Shown: in pieces, positions 2,223 to 32,461 of the stretch
Layout: every line of letters begins with the position of its first letter
Position numbering within the stretch: position 1 is the first letter of the stretch
NCBI GenBank assembly: GCA_000092065.1
Contig: CP000591.1
DNA: 64,000 bases
Strand: one strand, 5' to 3'
Source: Ostreococcus lucimarinus
Taxonomy: Eukaryota
Translations under genes and position numbers: made by a program
Notes under the pieces: model-generated
What the model saw: only the letters and a program-made list of their open reading frames with translations
What the model was told of the DNA's origin: nothing
Database searches by the model: none

Positions 2223-3764
2223 TCACGCCGCAACCGATTGAGCGTTCGCGTCGCCGAGCACCGCCTCGCTCGCAGTCGGCGGGGCGAGGATCTTCCTGCT
2301 CTCGTGGAAGTATTGATGCGGCGTGTGCACGCCCGCCTCGATTTCGACGCCGTCGTGAATCGCCGCAAACGTCATACCGCACGCGATTTGGTAGTGCATA
2401 TTCGTCGCCTTCTCGACAATCGCGTGCGACTTAGCACCAGAGATTTTCAACGTACCGAGCAACTCGTGCAAACGTGCGCCGTTATCCTTGACGCCAGACG
2501 TGAGCGTCTTGAACGGACAACCGTGCGCGTCCTTCACGCCCGGATCCGCTGCGATGCACTGACCGCACGCGTGCGGGGTGTAGTTGACGCGCTTCCCTTC
2601 CTTACCGTACGCGTGTCTGATACCATACGCGTAATCTTTTTCAAACTTCTCCGCGGAGCATTTCGGGTGCTTTGTGAACTCTGTCTTCCAAAACACGAGC
2701 GCCTGGTCCAGAGGCAAGCCGATGCCCTTCAAATACAGTTGCAGTTGTCGTCGACCGCCGTGCGTCAGGTGATGATCTTTCTTGAGCGCCTTGTAAAGCT
2801 GGCGCATGCACAGCGGGAAAGACTCTTGCGTGGCTTCGATGCCGGCGATCGACATCGTGCCGTCTTCGCCTTGGAAATCGTACCCGCTTCCCGATCGACG
2901 GTTGTGCACAGATTTCAAAAGCGGCGTCAAACGGTGAGCCTCCTTCTTTTCAAACTTGTTGAAGAGCGTGATGGCTTCGGCGACCATCTTGTTCAGCATC
3001 GTCTTAAACCGACCGAACACGAGTTGATCGAGGGTTTCTTTACGAATCCACGCGTTTCCGCCGATCAAGTACGCCCGTCTCGACTTGACGAGCGGGCACA
3101 CCTCTTCGAAACCGACGACGAACCAACGCGACGCCTCGCTCGCCGCTTCCTCGCACATCCTCTGGTACTCCATCGTCCCGAGCTTACCATCTTTACTGAG
3201 ACTTCGACGCATCTGCCTATACTCGTGGTCCGCCATCAAGACGTCCCGCAAATCGTCCCGTCTCTCCCGCACTTCCTTCTCGCTCGCCCGCGCGTAATCG
3301 TTAAACCCATTCGTCCGCATAAACTCCATCTTCGCGTCCAAACTCAGCTCACCGTACCGATACTTGAACAACTCCAACTCGTTCTCCCGAAACCATCGCC
3401 TGTGTTCTTCGCTTCGACAGCTCGCCAACCTCAACAAAAAATGACTCGTCGCGTCTCTCGCCGCGCCCTCCGCGTCAAACGTCCCCCCCGTCGTCCGTCG
3501 CATGTTATATTCCTCCTCCGCGCTCGCGATCGCCCGTTTCAATTCCTCATCCTTCTTCCCACCGCTTCGCGCGTCGTCGATCGCCCGCAAGACGCCGTAC
3601 CGATCCATCGCCGCGCGCTCCAGGTACTCGATGGAGCGTTCGTCATCCGGCGCGGTGTTGTACGCGTCCAACCGCGCCGCGTTTCCGCCGTACTTTCGCT
3701 CGAGCGCGGTCTTGGCGCGCGCTTCCGCTTTCTCTCGATTCGTGCGCAGCGCGCCGAAGACCAT
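2223..3764 (-). CDS. PRIM2: DNA primase large subunit (PriL/PRIM2)
   Basis: The C-terminal Fe-S domain matches human PRIM2 closely: SFPLCMRQLYKALKKDHHLTHGGRRQLQLYLKGIGL...FWKTEF...YGIRHAYGKEGKRVNYTPHACGQ...HGCPF...HYQIAC. ATG verified at 3764..3762. Confidence 0.85.
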   Translation of the reverse strand: MVFGALRTNREKAEARAKTALERKYGGNAARLDAYNTAPDDERSIEYLERAAMDRYGVLRAIDDARSGGKKDEELKRAIASAEEEYNMRRTTGGTFDAEGAARDATSHFLLRLASCRSEEHRRWFRENELELFKYRYGELSLDAKMEFMRTNGFNDYARASEKEVRERRDDLRDVLMADHEYRQMRRSLSKDGKLGTMEYQRMCEEAASEASRWFVVGFEEVCPLVKSRRAYLIGGNAWIRKETLDQLVFGRFKTMLNKMVAEAITLFNKFEKKEAHRLTPLLKSVHNRRSGSGYDFQGEDGTMSIAGIEATQESFPLCMRQLYKALKKDHHLTHGGRRQLQLYLKGIGLPLDQALVFWKTEFTKHPKCSAEKFEKDYAYGIRHAYGKEGKRVNYTPHACGQCIAADPGVKDAHGCPFKTLTSGVKDNGARLHELLGTLKISGAKSHAIVEKATNMHYQIACGMTFAAIHDGVEIEAGVHTPHQYFHESRKILAPPTASEAVLGDANAQSVAA

Positions 3765-3824
3765 GGCGGCGTCGCCGCCGTCGTCGCGCGTCGCCGTGTC
3801 GCGCGATCGTCGAGCTGTCGCCGC

Positions 3825-4039
3825 GTCGCGATTTCAAATTTCGTGGCGTCGGCGCCGCGCGCGGTGCGATTTCGAGGGTCGGCCTCGCGCACCGCGCACT
3901 GTTTACCCATACGCGCGTCGCGATTTCAAATTTCGTGGCGTCGGCGCCGCGCGCGGTGCGATTTCGAGGCGTCGGCGCCGCGCGCGGTGCGATTTCGAGG
4001 GTCGGACCTCGCGCACCGCGCACTGTTTACCCATACGCG
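3825..4039. repeat. Tandem repeat of a roughly 92-bp unit, about 2.3 copies with an internal 32-bp re-duplication, in the bidirectional promoter between PRIM2 and the 4129 gene
   Basis: gtcgcgatttcaaatttcgtggcgtcggcgccgcgcgcggtgcgatttcgagggtcggcctcgcgcaccgcgcactgtttacccatacgcg occurs at 3825-3916 and again at 3917-4039. Each unit ends in cactgtttacccatacgcg. Confidence 0.7.
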
Positions 4040-4128
4040 TCAACGCGCGGACGCGGCGCGACGCGCGACGCGCGCGCGCACGTCGCGACGCGCGCGCGAC
4101 CGCGACCGCGACCGCGCGGCGACGCGCC

Positions 4129-5364
4129 ATGTCCGCGGCGCTGGCGGAGACGATCGCGCGCGACGCCGCGGACGGACGCGCGGGCGAGTACGACCTCGCG
4201 GGATTCGGCGAGGCGTGGGTCGACGCGCTCGTCGAGGCGGCGTTCGCGACGCCGACGCGCGCGAAAGGAGGGTTTTACGCGTCGTGCAAGTTCATCGTCG
4301 GCGGCGGGAAGAAGACGCGGGCGAAGTACGACGATGAGGTGGTGAAACACTTGACGGCGGCGCTGCGCGCGAGGGGGTTCGAGGACGACAGAGGCGCGAG
4401 CGCGTGCGAGGCGTGCCAAGGGACGTATAAGTACCAGCACGACACGGATAAGGATTTAAAATACTTGCACGTGTTTCCGAGGGTGACGCACGAGGCGGAG
4501 GGGGGGGAGGCGGCGGCGGCGGCGGGCGGGACGCAGTCGCCCGAGTATCGCGCGTGCGCGTGCGATTTGGAGGAGTTCGAGCGATTGGTGGAGATGTATT
4601 GTCCGAGCTTTTCGCAAAAGCGCGCGCTGTTGCGCAGGATGAAGGTGATGGAGCACGCGCTCGGGGCGCTGGAACAAAAGGTGATCGCGATGGAGAGCTT
4701 GAATGATCGCGAGCAGACGATGTACGACTCGATGGTTGAAGTCGCGGCGAAGATTGAGTTCTTACAACAGGCGCTGGACGACATGATCAAGAAGGGTCGA
4801 TTGACGAAAGGCGAACAAGGAGAAATCGTCGAAGATTTGGAGCTCAAGCTCGAAGATTTGAACCTGATGGTGAACGAGGCGAACGAGGAGGGGAAGCCGA
4901 AGCGCGCGGAGATGCTCGAGAGCAAGAAGGAAATCGTCGTCAAGAAGATTGACTCGGTGCGCGCGAAACCTCCAATCGTGTACACGGTGCCGCACGAACG
5001 CGAACTTTTGGACTTGAAGAAGGAGCTGAACTCGCTGAAAAAAATTGCCGCACAATCGAAAGGAAAGTTGATGAGCGGTGCGGACGCGGCGAAGTGCGCG
5101 AATATTCCCAAGCTCGAAGAGCGCATAGCGAATTTGGAAAACTCCGAGGAAAAAGGATGGTACGAGGACGAATGCCGAGCGCTTCTCTTTCCACCGGTCG
5201 CCGAAAAGAAAGCACCGGCGAAGGCCAAGGCGAGTGGCGCCAAAACCAATTCGGGATGGCTCACCAAGGCGGCAAAGGGCGGATCGCGCGGCGGAGGTGG
5301 ATCCGCGAAAGCTTCGTCGACTCGTGGTCCTTCCAACCCGTTCGCGATGCTCGGCGACGATTAG
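4129..5364 (+). CDS. Coiled-coil protein with a possible N-terminal Smr-like domain
   Basis: ATG at 4129. The N-terminal CKFIVGGGKKTRAKYDDEVVKHLTAAL resembles the Smr-domain signature. It is followed by a long K/E-rich heptad region and a G/S/K-rich tail. The upstream part of the 3502 ORF overlaps PRIM2 and is rejected. Confidence 0.5.
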   Translation: MSAALAETIARDAADGRAGEYDLAGFGEAWVDALVEAAFATPTRAKGGFYASCKFIVGGGKKTRAKYDDEVVKHLTAALRARGFEDDRGASACEACQGTYKYQHDTDKDLKYLHVFPRVTHEAEGGEAAAAAGGTQSPEYRACACDLEEFERLVEMYCPSFSQKRALLRRMKVMEHALGALEQKVIAMESLNDREQTMYDSMVEVAAKIEFLQQALDDMIKKGRLTKGEQGEIVEDLELKLEDLNLMVNEANEEGKPKRAEMLESKKEIVVKKIDSVRAKPPIVYTVPHERELLDLKKELNSLKKIAAQSKGKLMSGADAAKCANIPKLEERIANLENSEEKGWYEDECRALLFPPVAEKKAPAKAKASGAKTNSGWLTKAAKGGSRGGGGSAKASSTRGPSNPFAMLGDD

Positions 5365-5411: not shown

Positions 5412-8400
5412 TCAACGTTCACTGTGGTGTCTGGGCGGTCGAAACGGCAAAGGTTCGACGTTCCAAATCTTCGCCGCGTACTCCCGAATCGTGCGATCGG
5501 ATGAAAACATCCACATCGAACACGCAGCTTCGATGCACTTTGCGGTCCACTTCTCTTCGTACTGATACGCCGCATCGGCTTCTGCAATCGCCCCTAGATA
5601 CGACGGAAAATCATGCGCGGTGAGGTAGACGTCTTTCCTCGGATCGATGGCGTCCAAGAGCTGGTTGTACGCTCCGTCGTCCGGCTTGCCGAAGATGCCG
5701 GCGCGAATCATTCCCATGGCGCGGTGAAGACGAGGATCAATTTTTGGTGGGTCGTGCGCCATCTTGCGTCGAATCGCCGCGACTTGATCCGCCTTCGCGC
5801 CAAACGTGAACATGTTATGCTCGCCAATCGCTTGTTCTATCTCGATGTTCGCCCCGTCCATTGTACCCACGATCAATCCGCCGTTCATGACGAACTTCAT
5901 GTTCCCGGTGCCGCTCGCCTCCATACCCGCAGTGGAGATGTGTTGCGAGATATCACTCGCGGGAATGAGAATCTCCGCTAGAGACACGTTGAAGTTGGGA
6001 ACGAACACCACCTTGAGTAAGTCACGACACGCCGCGTCGGAGTTCACGACTTCAGACACGGCGCATACGAGCATGACAAGATTTTTCGCCATGACGTATC
6101 CGGGCGCAGCTTTGCCGGCGATGATGTGCACGCGCGGCACCATTGTTTTGCGCTGTTCGGGCGTAGCCTGCGTGATTTCGGCGTAGCGGTGCACGATTCC
6201 AAGGACATTCAACAACTGGCGCTTGTATTCGTGTATGCGTTTGATTTGCATGTCGAACAAGGCGTTGGGATCGACGCGGATATTCATCGAACGGTACAGC
6301 CATTCCGCAAGCGCTTGCTTGTTCGTTTGCTTGGCCGCGCGCCAACGCTGTCGAAATTGCGGATCTTGCGCCATCGTCTTGATCGGCTCGAGTCGCTTGA
6401 GATCGTTTACCCACCCAGGGCCGACCATGCCCGTGTAAATGCTCGCGAGCGCTGGATTCGCTTGCAACAGCCATCGTCGCGGCGTGACACCATTCGTCAC
6501 GTTGATGAACTTTTCTGGCCACATCAACAAAAAGTCGGGGAATAGCAAAGACTTCAAAAGCTTGGTGTGGATCATCGCCACCCCGTTTACGGTGTGCGAC
6601 CCGATGACGGCTAAGTTGGACATGCGTACCATCTTGGGTGATGACTCTTCGATGATACTCATCGACGACATGCGCGCGGTGTCGTTTGGCCACATCTTTT
6701 GAACCTCAAGCAAAAACCGGTGGTTGATTTCGTAAATGATTTGCATGTGTCGCGGCAAGAGCTCGGTGATCATCGGCACCGGCCACTTCTCCAGTGCCTC
6801 CGGGAGAATGGTGTGGTTGGTGTACGCGAAGACTTTTCTCGTTATTTCCCACGCCTCGTCCCAAGGTAGACGCTCGATGTCGAGGAGCAAACGCATGAGT
6901 TCGGGAATAGCAATCGCCGGGTGCGTGTCGTTGAGCTGTATCGCCACCTTGTCCGGCATATTCTTCATCGTCGTAGACCCACGACCGACGTTCTTCTTGA
7001 AACGTCTATAGATGTCTTGTAAAGTCGCGCTGACGAAGAAGTATTGTTGCTTCAATCGCAAACGCTTACCTTCTTCCGTGGCGTCGTTCGGGTACAGCAC
7101 TGACGTGATACTCTCGCAACGTTCCTTCGCCTCGACCGCGCCGTAGTAATTACCGGCGTTAAACGAGGCGAGATTGAATTCGTGCGATGGCTTGCTACTC
7201 CACAGTCGCATATTGTTGGTGTTGTACGTACCGTAGCCTGGAATCGGGGTATCGTACGCCTGCGCCATGACGACTTCGCCGCCCTCCCACGCGTACAACG
7301 TGTTCCCGTCCGGATCTTGAAACTCTCGAACGTGGCCGAATAAACGAACCGGGTACTGCACGTCTAATCGTTCAACTTCCCACGGGTTCCCATCGGTAAG
7401 CCAATAATCTGGAAACTCCACTTGTTTACCATTCACGATTCTTTGCTCAAACATTCCGTACTTGTAGCGAATGCCGTACCCCCACGCGGGATAATTTTGC
7501 GTCGCGAGCGTGTCCAAGAAACAAGACGCCAAGCGCCCCAGACCCCCGTTCCCGAGCGCTGGCTCTTTTTCCTCTGACATGATATCTTCCAAATCGTATC
7601 CAATCTGCCGCAAAGCCTCGGCGTAGGCGCCTCGTAACCCGAGATTTGAGACGGCATTGCCGAGCGAGCGGCCGATTAAAAATTCGAGCGACAGATAGTA
7701 CACTTTCTTCGCCCCTTTCTTGGCCGAATACTGCTGCGTGTCCGTCCATCGCTCGATCAATCGATCTCGCACCGAGTGCGCGGTGGCTTGATAAAACGAG
7801 CTCGTATCGAGCTTGTACCTCCTTCGCGCGAGCGTATACTCCACGTGCCGCACCAACGATCGCTGCAAACTCGCCACGTCGTTTGGCAAGTACGTGCTCG
7901 ATAGCTTCCACAACAACTCCTTGTGCGCCAAGTGATCGACGCCCATCTCTGCATCGTCGACGTACTGACGCGGGCGATCGAGGATCGTCGTCGCGCTCTC
8001 CAAGAACGATGACTCGGTCACGTCCGCGCGATCGCTTTCCATATCCACGCTAAACGAATCCAGCTGCCCGAGCGAGTCTTTCCTCCGATGCTGCAACAAA
8101 GACGCTCCGCTCGACCGTGGACTGTGCAAGCTCACCGGCGGTCGCCCTCGATGATGATTCTGATGTTGTTGGTACTGATATCCACCCCTGTCGACGCCCA
8201 CGATCACGGGCATACCCGTCTCGTCGTCCCCTCGCGCGTACGATCCCGCGCCGCTCCTCGCCATCCGACCGCCGTACGCGCTCGACGTCGACGAGTCGTT
8301 CTCCTGCGCCAGATTCGCCCGCAAGCTCTGTTCGAGCCACGCGTCCACGCGCGTGTTTTGCCCGCTCGCCACGGACGAGCCCGGCTTCCGCCTCGCGCTC

Positions 8401-28166: not shown

Positions 28167-29572
28167 CTACGCCGCGACAGCCATCATGCCGCGCAAAACG
28201 AGCTCGCGAAGCGCCCAAGTGGGCTTGGTGTACTTTCGCCCGTCTTTGGTGGTATACTCCTTATCCACCAACTGCATGGCCCAAAGGTAGTGGACGGATT
28301 GAATGTCGTCCTCGGCGCCCTCGACGACGGCGCCGGATTTGTCGCGAACGCAGTTGATTTGTTGGCAACTAAAAGTCAGCACGACGAGGGGCTCGTTTTC
28401 CATCAAACGAACTTCCATGAGCTCGACTTCACTTAAATCTAAGATCCTCGGATCCACGTGCTGTCCTTCGTGCTTCCAAAGGTTCATCTGCCCGGATAAC
28501 CGCTCGAGCATTTCGCTCGAAATATTCGTTTGCTTCAACGCCTCGACGTCGCCCTTGAGGTAGGCGCCGAGAACTTTGGGAATATCTCTGCGCACTTCGG
28601 CGATAAAATCGTTAATGTTAAACATCGGATCTCGCTGACGAATCATGCGATACGCCTCGCCTTGCTCGGTCTCGCTGAACAGGTTATCCTGAAAGTCTTG
28701 AATGCGGTGCACCACGGGCGAGTCGCTCGTCTCCCATCGTTCGCGCATATCCTCCGCCAGCTCCGCCCCCTTGGCGTACGGCGCGGTCTTCTTCAACCCC
28801 TCGAGCTTATCGAACGCGCTCGCGATCCCGAGCTTGGACTTCACCCCTCCCCACAACTTTCCGAACGCGCTCGGTTTCGGCGCCGCCGTCGTCGCCACCG
28901 CCGTCGTCCCGTCGTACGGTTCAAACATCGCCTCATCGTACCCCGCCGCCTTCCTTCGCTCCGCCGCCGCGTCCCCCGGATCCATCATCGCCAACCGATA
29001 CTCCTCCTTCACCGCATCGATCGCCATCGCCGCGAATCCGCTCGGCGTCGTCCACGACTTTTTCCCCCCCGCCCTCGCGTCGCCCGTCGCCGCCGCCGCC
29101 GCCCGTCGTCCCGCCTTCCGCGCCGCCTCGCCCGCCTCCCTCGCCGCGTCGTCCACCGCGTCGACGTCGATGCCCGACGCTCTCGCGCGCGCCCGCATCT
29201 CCGCCGCCGCCTCCGCCGCGTACGTCGTCGCCCGCGCGCGTAAATCATCGAATCCCCGCGCGTCCGATCGCGTCGACGTCTTCCCCGTCGCCTCGCTCGC
29301 CGCGTCGCGCGGCGCGCGCGAGCGGCGCGTCGCGTCGCCGTCGTCGCGCGTCGCGTCGCGCGCGCGCGCGTCGTCGCGCTTGAGCGCGCGCGCGGACGCG
29401 CGAAGCGACGACATCGCGCGCGCGCGCGTCGCGTCGGCGCGCGTCGTCGCGCTCGAACGCGGCGCGACGCGCGCGAGCGCGCTCGAGCGCGACGCGACGC
29501 GCGCGAGCGACGCGTCGCCGAGCGCGCGCGCGCTCAGGCGCGCGAGCGCGCGTCGCGCGCGCGTCGCCATGG
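28167..29572 (-). CDS. TIM44: Mitochondrial inner-membrane translocase subunit TIM44
   Basis: The Tim44 C-terminal domain is colinear with yeast/human TIM44: PVVHRIQDFQDNLFSETEQGEAYRMIRQRDP.FNINDFIAEVRRDIPKVLGAYLKGDVEAL...VHYLWAMQ. Start chosen at ATG 29572 (MATRARRALARLSARALG, a mitochondrial presequence; 467 aa versus 452 aa in human) rather than the ORF-track ATG at 29744, which would overlap the neighbouring SET gene. Confidence 0.8.
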
Positions 29573-29609
29573 CGGCTCGAAGTGACGCGGCGACGCGGCG
29601 CGCACTTCG

Positions 29610-31157
29610 ATGCGCGCGCGCGCCGTCGCGCGATGCGCGCGGCGCGTCGTCGGCGCGGACGCGCGACCGGACGCGCGACCGCGACCGCGCGCGGCGTCGC
29701 GTCCGCGCGCTCAAGCGCGACGACGACGCGACGAGGACGCGCATCGCGCGACGGCGCGCGGCGGCGACGCGCGCGCGCTCGGCGCGCTCATGCGCTGGCT
29801 GCGCGCGCGCGGCGTCGAAGCGTCGCGCAAGACGCAGTTCGCGCGCGGACGCATGGGCGTCGGCGGCGTCGCGATCGAGGACATGGCGCAGGGGGAGGTG
29901 ATTTTCTCGCTGCGAATGCGAGACGACGACGACGCGCCGATCGCGCTGACGACGACGGAGGTCGAGAACGAGCGCGGACCGCTGCGAACGCTGGCGAAGA
30001 TGGTGAACGCGACGAGGCTGACGAGTAGGTACGCTGGGGTGATCGAGGACGAGTGGGGATTTCCGTTGGATTCGACGCGCGCGGCGACGCTGGCGCTGGC
30101 GCTGGCGCGGGAAGTCGAGCTGGGGGACGACGCGTACTGGCGCGCGTACGTCGATTTGTTGCCTCGAGAGGTGGATAGCTTGCAGATGTGGGACGATGAC
30201 GAGCTCGAGGCGCTGCAGGGGTCGAGATTGATCGAAAGGGCGCGGCGAAGACGCGCGCTGGTGCGACGGGAATACGAAGCGACGCGCGAGGCGTTGGGGG
30301 CGACGGCGCCGTCGTACGAGTCGTTTCGATGGGCGTACGCCACCGTGCTCGCGCGCGCGTTCGTGCTTCCAGATTTGAACTGCATGGCGCTGTTGCCGGG
30401 ATTAGATTTGTACAATTCCGCGCGCGACGCGGAAAAGTGTACGGTGGAGCGACTCGGGCACGTCGAAGACGACGACGACGAAGACGACGACGAGGACGTC
30501 GCGTTCGCGAACGAGGGCGAAGCGCAAGTCACGCTTCGCGTCGGTATCGGTGGCGCGGCGGCGGGAACGCAGCTGTTTCACGATTACGCCGACCACACCT
30601 CGGGCGGGGCGTTGCTCGAATTCGGTTTCGTGTACCACGGCGAACGCGAGCGAGGCTCGGGCGTGGACGCCGTCGAGACGAGTCTTGTGCGCGCGTACGA
30701 CGCACTCGACGCGCGTTCGCGCGCGTTTCTCGCCGAACGCGTGTTCGGTGCGTTCAACGTGCGCACCAGCCTGACGTTTGAGCTCTCGAACGTGGGTGGC
30801 GTGTACAAACCCGCCCTTCGCGGCGCCGCGTGCGTTCCGCTCGAAATGTGGCGCGCCGCGAGGGCGTTGGCGCTCTCGCCCGAGCGCGCGCTCCCGGCGT
30901 CGTTAGACGACGTCTTGGACGAAGACACCGAAATTCGAGCGCGTCGCATCATCCTCGACGCTCTCAAAGCCGAGCGCGCGCGCTACGCCGCGACGTCGAT
31001 CGAGGAAGACGTCCGCGCGCTTCGCCTCGCGCTCGACGCCGGCGCCGCCGCGCGTCGAACCGCCGCCGCGCTCGACGTGCGCGTCGGCGAGAAATCCCTC
31101 CTCGACGACGTCATCACCGATTTAGAAACGAACGCGCGACGCGCACGGCGCGGATAG
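29610..31157 (+). CDS. SET-domain protein-lysine methyltransferase of the Rubisco-LSMT/SETD3-like class
   Basis: ALMRWLRARGVEAS.K..F.....GVGGVAIEDMAQGEVI is an LSMT-type N-terminus; the SET core ends LFHDYADHTSGGALLEFGFVY; a Rubisco-substrate-binding-like C-terminal domain follows. ATG verified at 29610. Confidence 0.75.
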   Translation: MRARAVARCARRVVGADARPDARPRPRAASRPRAQARRRRDEDAHRATARGGDARALGALMRWLRARGVEASRKTQFARGRMGVGGVAIEDMAQGEVIFSLRMRDDDDAPIALTTTEVENERGPLRTLAKMVNATRLTSRYAGVIEDEWGFPLDSTRAATLALALAREVELGDDAYWRAYVDLLPREVDSLQMWDDDELEALQGSRLIERARRRRALVRREYEATREALGATAPSYESFRWAYATVLARAFVLPDLNCMALLPGLDLYNSARDAEKCTVERLGHVEDDDDEDDDEDVAFANEGEAQVTLRVGIGGAAAGTQLFHDYADHTSGGALLEFGFVYHGERERGSGVDAVETSLVRAYDALDARSRAFLAERVFGAFNVRTSLTFELSNVGGVYKPALRGAACVPLEMWRAARALALSPERALPASLDDVLDEDTEIRARRIILDALKAERARYAATSIEEDVRALRLALDAGAAARRTAAALDVRVGEKSLLDDVITDLETNARRARRG

Positions 31158-31213: not shown

Positions 31214-31549
31214 TCACGCGCGCGCGTCGTCGTCGTCGTCGTCCTTCGCCTCCCCCCTCCCCTCCTCCGGCTCGTACTCCACGCGCAGCAGCGCCTCCAG
31301 GCTCTCTCGCTTATACATCAGCGCGTCCCGTTCCTTATCGATGTCCCACGCCTCGCTCGGGTCGTCCGTCCGTCGCCATCGCTTATTCTCCTCGACCCGT
31401 CGTCGCTCATCCTCATCCCAGATCTCATCGTCGTCTTTCTTCGACCACGCGCGCGCGATCGTCGACGTCCCGGTCCCGCGCGCGCGCGCGATCCATCGCG
31501 GCGCGCGCGCGACGACGCGGCACCGCGGCTTCGTCGTCGTCGGCGGCAT
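31214..31549 (-). CDS. Small highly charged hypothetical protein (111 aa)
   Basis: ATG verified at 31549..31547. K/D/E/R/W-rich (KKDDDEIWDEDERRRVEENKRWRR...EAWDIDKERDALMYKRESLEALL), which does not look like a GC-frame artefact. No homology recognised. Confidence 0.35.
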   Translation of the reverse strand: MPPTTTKPRCRVVARAPRWIARARGTGTSTIARAWSKKDDDEIWDEDERRRVEENKRWRRTDDPSEAWDIDKERDALMYKRESLEALLRVEYEPEEGRGEAKDDDDDDARA

Positions 31550-31634
31550 CGACGAGTGCGGCGGCGTCGACGCGCGCGCGGATCGCGCGGCGCGCGTCGA
31601 AAATCGGTCGCGTACTGTTTGCCCACACGCGACG

Positions 31635-31647
31635 TTTTCGCGCCAAA
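31635..31647 (+). promoter_or_regulatory. E2F-like site TTTTCGCGCCAAA (copy 1)
   Basis: An exact match to the E2F consensus TTTSSCGC with a CCAAA flank, inside repeat unit 1. Confidence 0.4.
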
Positions 31648-31702
31648 TTCATTGACATGTCGCCTCGCACATCGGTCGCGGACTGTTTGCCCATACGCGA
31701 CG

Positions 31703-31715
31703 TTTTCGCGCCAAA
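31703..31715 (+). promoter_or_regulatory. E2F-like site TTTTCGCGCCAAA (copy 2)
   Basis: The identical 13-mer in repeat unit 2, 12 bp upstream of the 31727 ATG. Confidence 0.4.
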
Positions 31716-31726
31716 TTCATTGACAA

Positions 31727-32461
31727 ATGTCGCCTCGACGACGCGGACGCGCGACGACGACGCCGGCGCCGACGCGAGAGCGCGTCGCGACGACGGACGC
31801 GACGGCGCGACGGGAGGCGGCGATGACGGCGCGCGCGACGCGCGAGCGCGACGACGGCGCGCGGGCGACGACGGACGAGGGCGGCGCGCGGGCGACGACG
31901 GACGAGGATCGCGCGCGGCTGACAAAGTATTGGTTGCGACGACGGTGCTCGACGGGATCGCACGCGAGCGAGGCGACGGAGGTGGGGATGCTGACGGGAG
32001 GGGAGAGCAGCAACGAGAGCCATCAGGCGACGGGACGGCGAGCGCGACGGGGGGGGTCGGCGTCGGCGTCGACGCCGCCGGGCGCGGGGCGACGCGCGGA
32101 GAGAGGAGGGATCGATACGCCGGGACACTTCGCGTTCGCGACGCCGATGAGCGCGAGGGTGCGCGAGGAGGGGATGACGACGCCGAGAACGCCGACGCTG
32201 GCGAACGATAGTCCGGATCGAGCGCGGTTGGATGAGCTCTTGGCGGCGCCCGTGAAGCCGAATTTCGGTACGCGGGCGGCGATCGAGTGCACGCCGCGAC
32301 ACACGCCGTTGAAGCTGCGATTTGATGATAACGTGGACGTCGTCGTGAGTGGAACGCACGCGACGAGTAAGAAGCGCGCGCGTGGGAAGTTGAGCGATGT
32401 GTTCAAGGCGACCAAGTCGACGACGCCGAGGCTCACGCGCGCGCGAAAGGCGATGTTGTGA
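31727..32461 (+). CDS. Hypothetical S/T-P-rich basic protein, a possible cell-cycle (CDK-substrate-like) protein
   Basis: ATG at 31727 lies inside repeat unit 2. The N-terminal 120 aa are low complexity. The C-terminal half (DTPGHFAFATPMSARVREEGMTTPRTPTL...ECTPRHTPLKLRFDD...KKRARGKLSDVF) has multiple S/TP sites and a KRAR basic patch with protein-like composition. Confidence 0.4.
   Translation: MSPRRRGRATTTPAPTRERVATTDATARREAAMTARATRERDDGARATTDEGGARATTDEDRARLTKYWLRRRCSTGSHASEATEVGMLTGGESSNESHQATGRRARRGGSASASTPPGAGRRAERGGIDTPGHFAFATPMSARVREEGMTTPRTPTLANDSPDRARLDELLAAPVKPNFGTRAAIECTPRHTPLKLRFDDNVDVVVSGTHATSKKRARGKLSDVFKATKSTTPRLTRARKAML

Follow-up and report, generated by a model that had tools for sequence, protein, structure and literature searches.

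The window analyzed here is a 64 kb stretch of the genome of Ostreococcus lucimarinus CCE9901, in which the products of the LHC and FKBP genes are identical to XP_001420273.1 and XP_001420445.1 of this strain. Pfam scans of the long open reading frames (ORFs) revealed a compact green-algal gene map. The subject of this report is the promoter of a gene on the plus strand that probably extends from 31823 to 32461 and encodes a disordered, S/T-P-rich protein of 212 amino acids (aa), with the O. tauri protein XP_003081921.2 as ortholog. The intergenic region in which this promoter lies is shared with a small divergent gene on the minus strand (31214–31549, 111 aa, no Pfam match). It contains a tandemly repeated unit with a palindromic site of the E2F type in each copy. 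Orthologous loci were collected by a metagenome scan and from O. tauri, yielding nine Ostreococcus lineages; percentages given for a lineage denote protein identity to the window ORF, and contigs are referred to by L-numbers.

Tandem Repeats Finder (TRF) detected a head-to-tail repeat at 31603–31737 with a period of 68, 2.0 copies, 94% matches, 2% indels and a score of 240, which confirmed the tandemly duplicated promoter module recognized in a first-pass annotation of the bare sequence. With low-complexity repeats left out, this score is exceeded in the window only by a duplication at 3838–4079. A repeat search extended the similarity by ~10 nt further to the left (31593–31657 versus 31661–31725, 92%). 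Based on TRF, the repeat search, the strain alignment and the haplotype table, copy 1 was assigned to 31603–31670 and copy 2 to 31671–31740, both on the plus strand. Copy 1 has no counterpart in most conspecific haplotypes; copy 2, which has a length of 70 nt with an AA insertion before its ATG, corresponds to the single copy of other strains.

Within the unit, the 5′ conserved element is represented by the ACTGTTTGCCCACACG motif in copy 1 (31614–31629, plus strand) and by the ACTGTTTGCCCATACG motif in copy 2 (31682–31697, plus strand), the latter being also found in the orthologous promoters of L012 (conserved region 91% identical) and L024 (52%). It is followed by the E2F-type palindrome TTTCGCGCCAAA, located at 31636–31647 in copy 1 and at 31704–31715 in copy 2, that is 187 and 119 nt upstream of the conserved ATG, respectively; the site in copy 2 is the orthologously conserved one. 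A TTGACA element is present on the plus strand 4 nt downstream of each palindrome (31652–31657 and 31720–31725), and TTCATTGAC at the second of these is invariant within the species. The two copies differ by two substitutions and by a 2-nt AA indel (GACATGT versus GACAAATGT). An indel at this place had been noted before as a single inserted A; its presence was verified, but it comprises two nucleotides. Due to this AA insertion, the ATGs at 31657 and 31727 are 70 nt apart in a unit of 68 nt and are thus in different frames.

The sequence TTTTCGCGCCAAA occurs exactly twice in the window, at 31635 and 31703, and the strict palindrome TTTSGCGCSAAA exclusively at 31636 and 31704, whereas relaxed matches to TTTTCGCGCCAAA with up to two mismatches were found at chance level (4 found versus 4.7 expected). 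At both positions TTTCGCGCCAAA agrees with the E2F consensus TTTSSCGC as a double palindromic site. The mammalian DHFR promoter has an E2F site of identical sequence (Transfac R01928, quoted in PMC2784457), which has been employed as probe in electrophoretic mobility shift assays (PMC3205837). The description of the motif as a textbook E2F site present in each copy was therefore well founded.

Comparison of the orthologous promoters demonstrated that the palindrome is maintained over long evolutionary distances. Allowing at most one mismatch, TTTSSCGSSAAA is present in seven out of nine lineages, 106–187 nt upstream of the conserved ATG. Besides the two sites of O. lucimarinus, these are TTTCGCGCCAAA in L014 (84%; 106 nt upstream) and in L021 (54%; 150 nt), TTTGGCGGGAAA in L015/L017 (61%; 152 nt), TTTCCCGCCAAA in L024 (52%; 140 nt), TTTGGCGGGAGA in L028 (50%; 127 nt) and TTTGGCGCCAAA in the RCC789-like L030 (45%; 127 nt). 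In L012 (91% over the conserved region) only the octamer TTTCCCGC was detected, 75 nt upstream. All of these ortholog sites (L012–L030) are consequently within 75–152 nt upstream of the conserved ATG, which is a proximal promoter position. Outside these promoters, the background for TTTSSCGSSAAA with at most one mismatch was 5 per 110 kb with no exact match, corresponding to ~0.011 per 250 bp. Among lineages, the palindrome varies only at the S positions of TTTSSCGSSAAA; T run, CG core and A run are all retained. Within the species, TTTCGCGCCAAATTCATTGAC is invariant in 22 module copies, representing 19 haplotypes, and its flanks are variable. Furthermore, TTGWCA is found 4–15 nt downstream of the E2F-like site in six out of nine lineages (background 0.005 per lineage; binomial P ~1e-12, with the lineages treated as independent). 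The rest of the surrounding promoter cannot be aligned between distant lineages. As judged from this comparison, the palindrome is a conserved E2F-type proximal promoter element.

We consider it probable, with a confidence of roughly 0.65, that the unit, which shows a natural copy-number polymorphism, represents the promoter core of the 212-aa gene and that its palindrome is read by E2F/DP or a DEL-type factor. In O. tauri, an RB-E2F pathway has been described and the cyclin B promoter is reported to carry an E2F motif (PMC2873908; PMC3224931), and the genus uses the RB pathway for S-phase commitment (PMC2873908). In this core, the upstream ACTGTTTGCCCAYACG motif is followed by the palindromic double E2F site TTTCGCGCCAAA and, 4 nt further downstream, by TTGACA. 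The palindrome would most likely be bound by E2F/DP or by a DEL-type factor favouring double sites, and this binding would place the gene under RB-E2F control, presumably resulting in cell-cycle-dependent expression. The tandem duplication in CCE9901 and in a minority of haplotypes doubles the E2F sites, which may alter the level or the timing of expression. The ATGs within the module would probably precede or coincide with the transcription start, or might be tolerated by leaky scanning.

Several observations weigh against E2F control. Since the lineages share ancestry, the footprint probabilities given above overstate their independence, although the remainder of the promoter does not align. 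In O. tauri RCC1115, only the degenerate TTTCTCGC is found at the corresponding place, 156–195 nt upstream of the conserved ATG, and the E2F-type site is therefore not universal in the genus. The window contains two replication genes, the gene encoding the DNA primase large subunit (2223–3764, minus strand; identified by Pfam) and MCM2, the first exon of which is located at the left edge. Neither WTTSSCSS nor TTTSSCGS was detected in the MCM2 5′ region (1–454) or in the promoter of the primase large subunit (3765–4128), and strict TTTSSCGS was likewise absent from the primase promoters of four other Ostreococcus lineages. Instead, MCM2 and primase have a different conserved element in common, consisting of TTTGAA plus GAGCTGTC. 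E2F sites are therefore not an obvious mark of replication genes here. The enrichment of the motif upstream of replication genes that would go along with an S-phase regulon was thus not observed, in a comparison that covers the two genes of the window (n = 2) rather than the genome and is underpowered. On these two promoters the regulon idea is not supported, but n = 2 leaves E2F control of the 212-aa gene unrefuted. The element would accordingly be classed as an E2F site by its sequence, position and conservation, but not by an enrichment at replication genes (n = 2).

These findings lend some weight to the alternative that the palindrome is functional but read by a factor other than E2F, or that it is part of a bidirectional core promoter shared with the small gene, which we regard as unlikely but deserving serious attention. 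Apart from the missing sites at MCM2 and primase and the lack of a canonical site in O. tauri, a non-E2F factor might be suggested by the conserved unit itself, which reaches past the E2F consensus to TTCATTGAC and ACTGTTTGCCCA, matching no factor named. However, the confinement of lineage variation to the S positions of TTTSSCGSSAAA is exactly the degeneracy expected for E2F. A role shared with the divergent gene is contradicted by the distribution of that gene. The ORF starting at 31549 on the minus strand does exist, as had been stated, and is conserved in L014 and L021, but it is precisely deleted in the sister lineage L007–L009, in which the protein encoded by the target gene is 95–96% identical and L009 keeps a remnant of the start (TCGGCGGCATC). 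It is also missing in L024, L028, O. tauri and L030. The palindrome is nevertheless kept in lineages without the small gene (L007–L009, L024, L028 and L030), where the 3′ end of a SET/LSMT-like gene is located directly upstream of the promoter. The site outlasts the loss of the small gene and therefore belongs to the 212-aa gene.

The element found at the two replication genes was present in the primase promoters of five Ostreococcus lineages as well as in the MCM2 5′ region, as TTTGAA (often TTTGAAAATTTTCAAA) followed by GAGCTGTCG or CGACAGCTC. Its composite form can be described as AAATTTGAAA, a TTTGAA resembling the cell cycle genes homology region (CHR) and often extended to the palindrome TTTGAAAATTTTCAAA, followed by GAGCTGTCG or its reverse complement within ~5–20 nt. 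In the window it is located at 3826–3850 and 3918–3945 and, on the reverse strand, within 1–454; on other contigs it was found at L048:1440–1470, L049:1320–1365, L050:1350–1395, L051:1215–1245 and L034:6300–6345. We propose it as a candidate S-phase cis-module distinct from E2F. The use of a different element at two nearby replication genes bears on the wiring of S-phase transcription in this lineage. MCM2 itself has an acidic first exon (MATSDSDDRDD...) at 1–215 on the minus strand, with the gene extending past the left edge of the window, and the corresponding region of L034 is 6053–6542. The exon is followed by an apparent intron, and gene callers split the gene into a '133-aa' ORF and the MCM body.

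The ATGs at 31657 and 31727 are the only ones on the plus strand within 31550–31822. The ATG of copy 2 (31727–31729) is in frame with the gene in CCE9901 and opens an ORF of 244 codons (31727–32461). According to the first-pass annotation, copy 2 supplies the start codon of this 244-aa protein, and copy 1 supplies an upstream ATG (uATG) in another frame which could act as a regulatory upstream ORF (uORF). The difference in frame was verified: the ATG at 31657 opens an overlapping ORF of 184 codons on the plus strand (31657–32211). The duplication of a start codon in this sense would be in accordance with the absence of an intervening stop downstream of 31727, with the A at position −3 and with the 244-aa ORF having been picked by gene callers on four contigs.

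Comparison of strains argues against it. The module ATG lies within the most variable patch of the promoter. Following TTGAC, the sequence is AAATG in copy 2 of the window, in L003 and in L007–L009, ATG in L001 and GAATG in L002. No ATG is present in L005, L055 and L058 (ATC), in L006, L052, L053, L059 and copy 2 of L061 (ATCTC), in L056 (AAGCG) or in L060 (ACTCG). The module ATG is thus absent in at least 10 conspecific haplotypes; L054 likewise counts among the contigs without it. It is also missing in L012 (TTGACATCG; 91% identical over the conserved region), and in L007 an insertion of 1 nt places it in another frame than the gene. Residues 1–32, by which the 244-aa ORF exceeds the shorter form, showed no conservation in any ortholog of the alignment. 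The ATG at 31823, on the other hand, was found in every strain resolved there, and the 212-aa product (P0025) is encoded on 42 contigs versus four for the 244-aa form. The annotated start of the O. tauri RefSeq protein XP_003081921.2 (MDAAFERLEDD...) and the start derived from the RCC789 transcript MMETSP0937 both align with 31823, and the conserved (R)AF(D/E)D block follows immediately. Since the module ATG is variable, that at 31823 present in every resolved strain and the ortholog starts aligned with it, the real start is most likely 31823, and the gene model is corrected accordingly from 31727. The module ATGs appear to be incidental: the one at 31727, in frame here but not conserved, is probably not the physiological start, and the ORF 31657–32211 is probably untranslated. 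As the uATG is confined to duplication alleles, which are a minority polymorphism, is not conserved and opens a long overlapping frame of 184 codons instead of a short one, there is no support for a dedicated uORF function. Taken together, we judge the start-codon interpretation to be quite improbable. The short Logan contig L044, which was considered as transcript evidence for the 5′ end, proved to be genomic.

For the ACTGTTTGCCCACACG motif, the window has four matches versus 0.07 expected. A part of the unit of 16–18 nt, the ACTGTTTRCCCAYACG motif, is found again at 3898 and 4022, in a different intergenic region that is tandemly duplicated as well. This recurrence might be taken to place the module among dispersed repeats or small mobile elements without any promoter role, but such an explanation is very improbable, as only the short motif is shared, at one other promoter, and neither the E2F-like 13-mer nor the whole unit has a further occurrence in the 64 kb or, outside the orthologous position, in ~300 kb of related loci. 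In addition, the repeat search revealed no flanking inverted repeats, and the position of the element is conserved across the genus. In the orthologous promoters, the upstream ACTGTTTRCCCAYACG motif is retained in three lineages. It was also evaluated as a shared S-phase element and rejected: it is present in the intergenic region between primase and gene 4 of O. lucimarinus and missing from the primase promoters of four other lineages, and it is therefore regarded solely as a conserved component of the promoter of the 212-aa gene.

Copy number of the unit varies among strains. Two copies are present in four contigs (the window, L001, L002 and L061) and one copy in ten (L003, L005, L006, L052, L053, L055, L056, L058, L059 and L060); the sister lineage L007–L009 likewise has one. 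The duplication is a segregating strain polymorphism carried by a minority of haplotypes. That it is merely an artefact of assembly is hardly conceivable: two metagenomic scaffolds (L054 and L057) have N gaps at the unit, indicating that assemblers struggle there, but the two-copy alleles of CCE9901, L001, L002 and L061 come from four independent assemblies with their own single-nucleotide polymorphisms and indels and with a common junction.

This junction, CGCACATCGG, is identical to one allelic form of the flank upstream of the unit (GTCGCACATCG...), as found in the single-copy haplotypes L052, L053, L056, L059 and L060, and the sequence CGC[G/C]TCG is common to both ends of the unit. Both findings indicate that the duplication was likely caused by unequal exchange between two haplotypes at the short CGCNTCG microhomology. 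The coexistence of one-site and two-site alleles in the wild provides a natural experiment on the dosage of E2F sites and its relation to expression.

The protein encoded downstream appears to be confined to Ostreococcus and its close relatives. When 1.84 billion representative proteins were searched with a profile, eight were retrieved, all of them close relatives; the named members are XP_003081921.2 / CEF99585.1 and OUS43611.1 of O. tauri and the transcript MMETSP0937 of Ostreococcus sp. RCC789. For the 244-aa ORF, neither Pfam nor a PDB profile search yielded a relative, and Pfam searches up to E = 10 with the window protein and all 12 alignment members gave nothing meaningful. AlphaFold predicted disorder, with a mean predicted local distance difference test (pLDDT) score of 49 and a single helix of eight residues. 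The alignment nevertheless revealed conserved short motifs (KYWLRRR, FAFATP, TPRTP, ARLxxLLAAPxKPN and TPLKLRF) and a conserved C-terminal motif, KKRxR-x2-3-[LVM]SD[VH]F-x3-K, within the arrangement KKRxR...SD[VH]F...K...TPR.TRARK. The 212-aa form has nine S/T-P sites, and seven are conserved. The S/T-P sites and the basic patch that had been pointed out earlier are thus real features, with the patch reading KKRAR, and the S/T-P sites would fit a substrate of a proline-directed kinase. The C-terminal motif we take, as a lead only, to resemble a nuclear localization signal followed by a PIP-degron-like box.

Literature searches with the accessions of the O. tauri ortholog found no mention of it, and it is annotated only as 'unnamed product'. 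Neither the 244-aa nor the 212-aa product was present among the NCBI-sourced entries within the 40 of 71 members of its 90% cluster that were covered, so that an annotation of this gene may be lacking in the CCE9901 reference. The N-terminal coding or leader region (31746–31918) is built of tandem repeats of 27–33 nt encoding ARATTDEGG-like units; in-frame indels distinguish the strains there, and L008 and L009, for instance, lack 15 nt.

The E2F-type site itself resembles that of the mammalian DHFR promoter, where inverted E2F sites overlap, in 12 identical nucleotides (TTTCGCGCCAAA) forming a palindrome bounded by T and A runs and in a proximal position ~100–200 nt from the start codon. It differs in that it is found in a green picoalga, at a lineage-restricted gene and in two copies in some strains. 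The promoters of the RB-E2F/DP pathway in plants and green algae, including that of O. tauri cyclin B, likewise have an evolutionarily conserved site with the TTTSSCGC consensus; in contrast to these, the neighbouring MCM2 and primase large subunit genes lack such sites here, and the site of the O. tauri ortholog is degenerate. Polymorphism by tandem duplication is already known for cis-elements, and the present case agrees with other natural copy-number polymorphisms of this kind in its head-to-tail copies segregating among conspecific haplotypes and in its microhomology flanks, with the addition that a second promoter of CCE9901 (3838–4079) shows the same kind of polymorphism. With regulatory uORFs and uATGs the locus shares an out-of-frame ATG upstream of the main ORF in the duplication alleles, but this ATG is unconserved and opens the overlapping 184-codon frame.

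Ostreococcus represents a minimal model for the plant-type RB-E2F switch, for which few E2F targets have been defined. The locus adds a cleanly footprinted E2F-type site together with a candidate target gene for which no homologs were found beyond close relatives. A more far-reaching proposal would be that the 212-aa protein is an unrecognised cell-cycle regulator controlled by RB-E2F and that the presence of one versus two module copies is a natural cis-regulatory dosage variant; we put this forward as a speculation that is rather doubtful at present. If true, the variant would tune commitment or S-phase timing in wild populations of O. lucimarinus.

Two further observations concern other parts of the window. 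The second promoter tandem duplication (3838–4079) is located between the gene of the primase large subunit and an ORF on the plus strand (4129–5364). Its period is ~123 bp, a 31-bp repeat (ATTTCGAGGCGTCGGCGCCGCGCGCGGTGCG) is nested within it, and it contains ACTGTTTACCCATACG. It is polymorphic among strains, the intergenic region comprising 364 nt with two copies in CCE9901 and 234–242 nt with one copy in nine metagenomic contigs (L034–L036 and L038–L043). A very long imperfect (CG)n tract of ~120 dinucleotide units with 60–69% matches extends from 29301 to 29811, where the N-terminal coding regions of a divergent Tim44-like gene and of the SET/LSMT-like gene meet, and similar CG-rich low-complexity tracts are present at many intergenic regions of the window.

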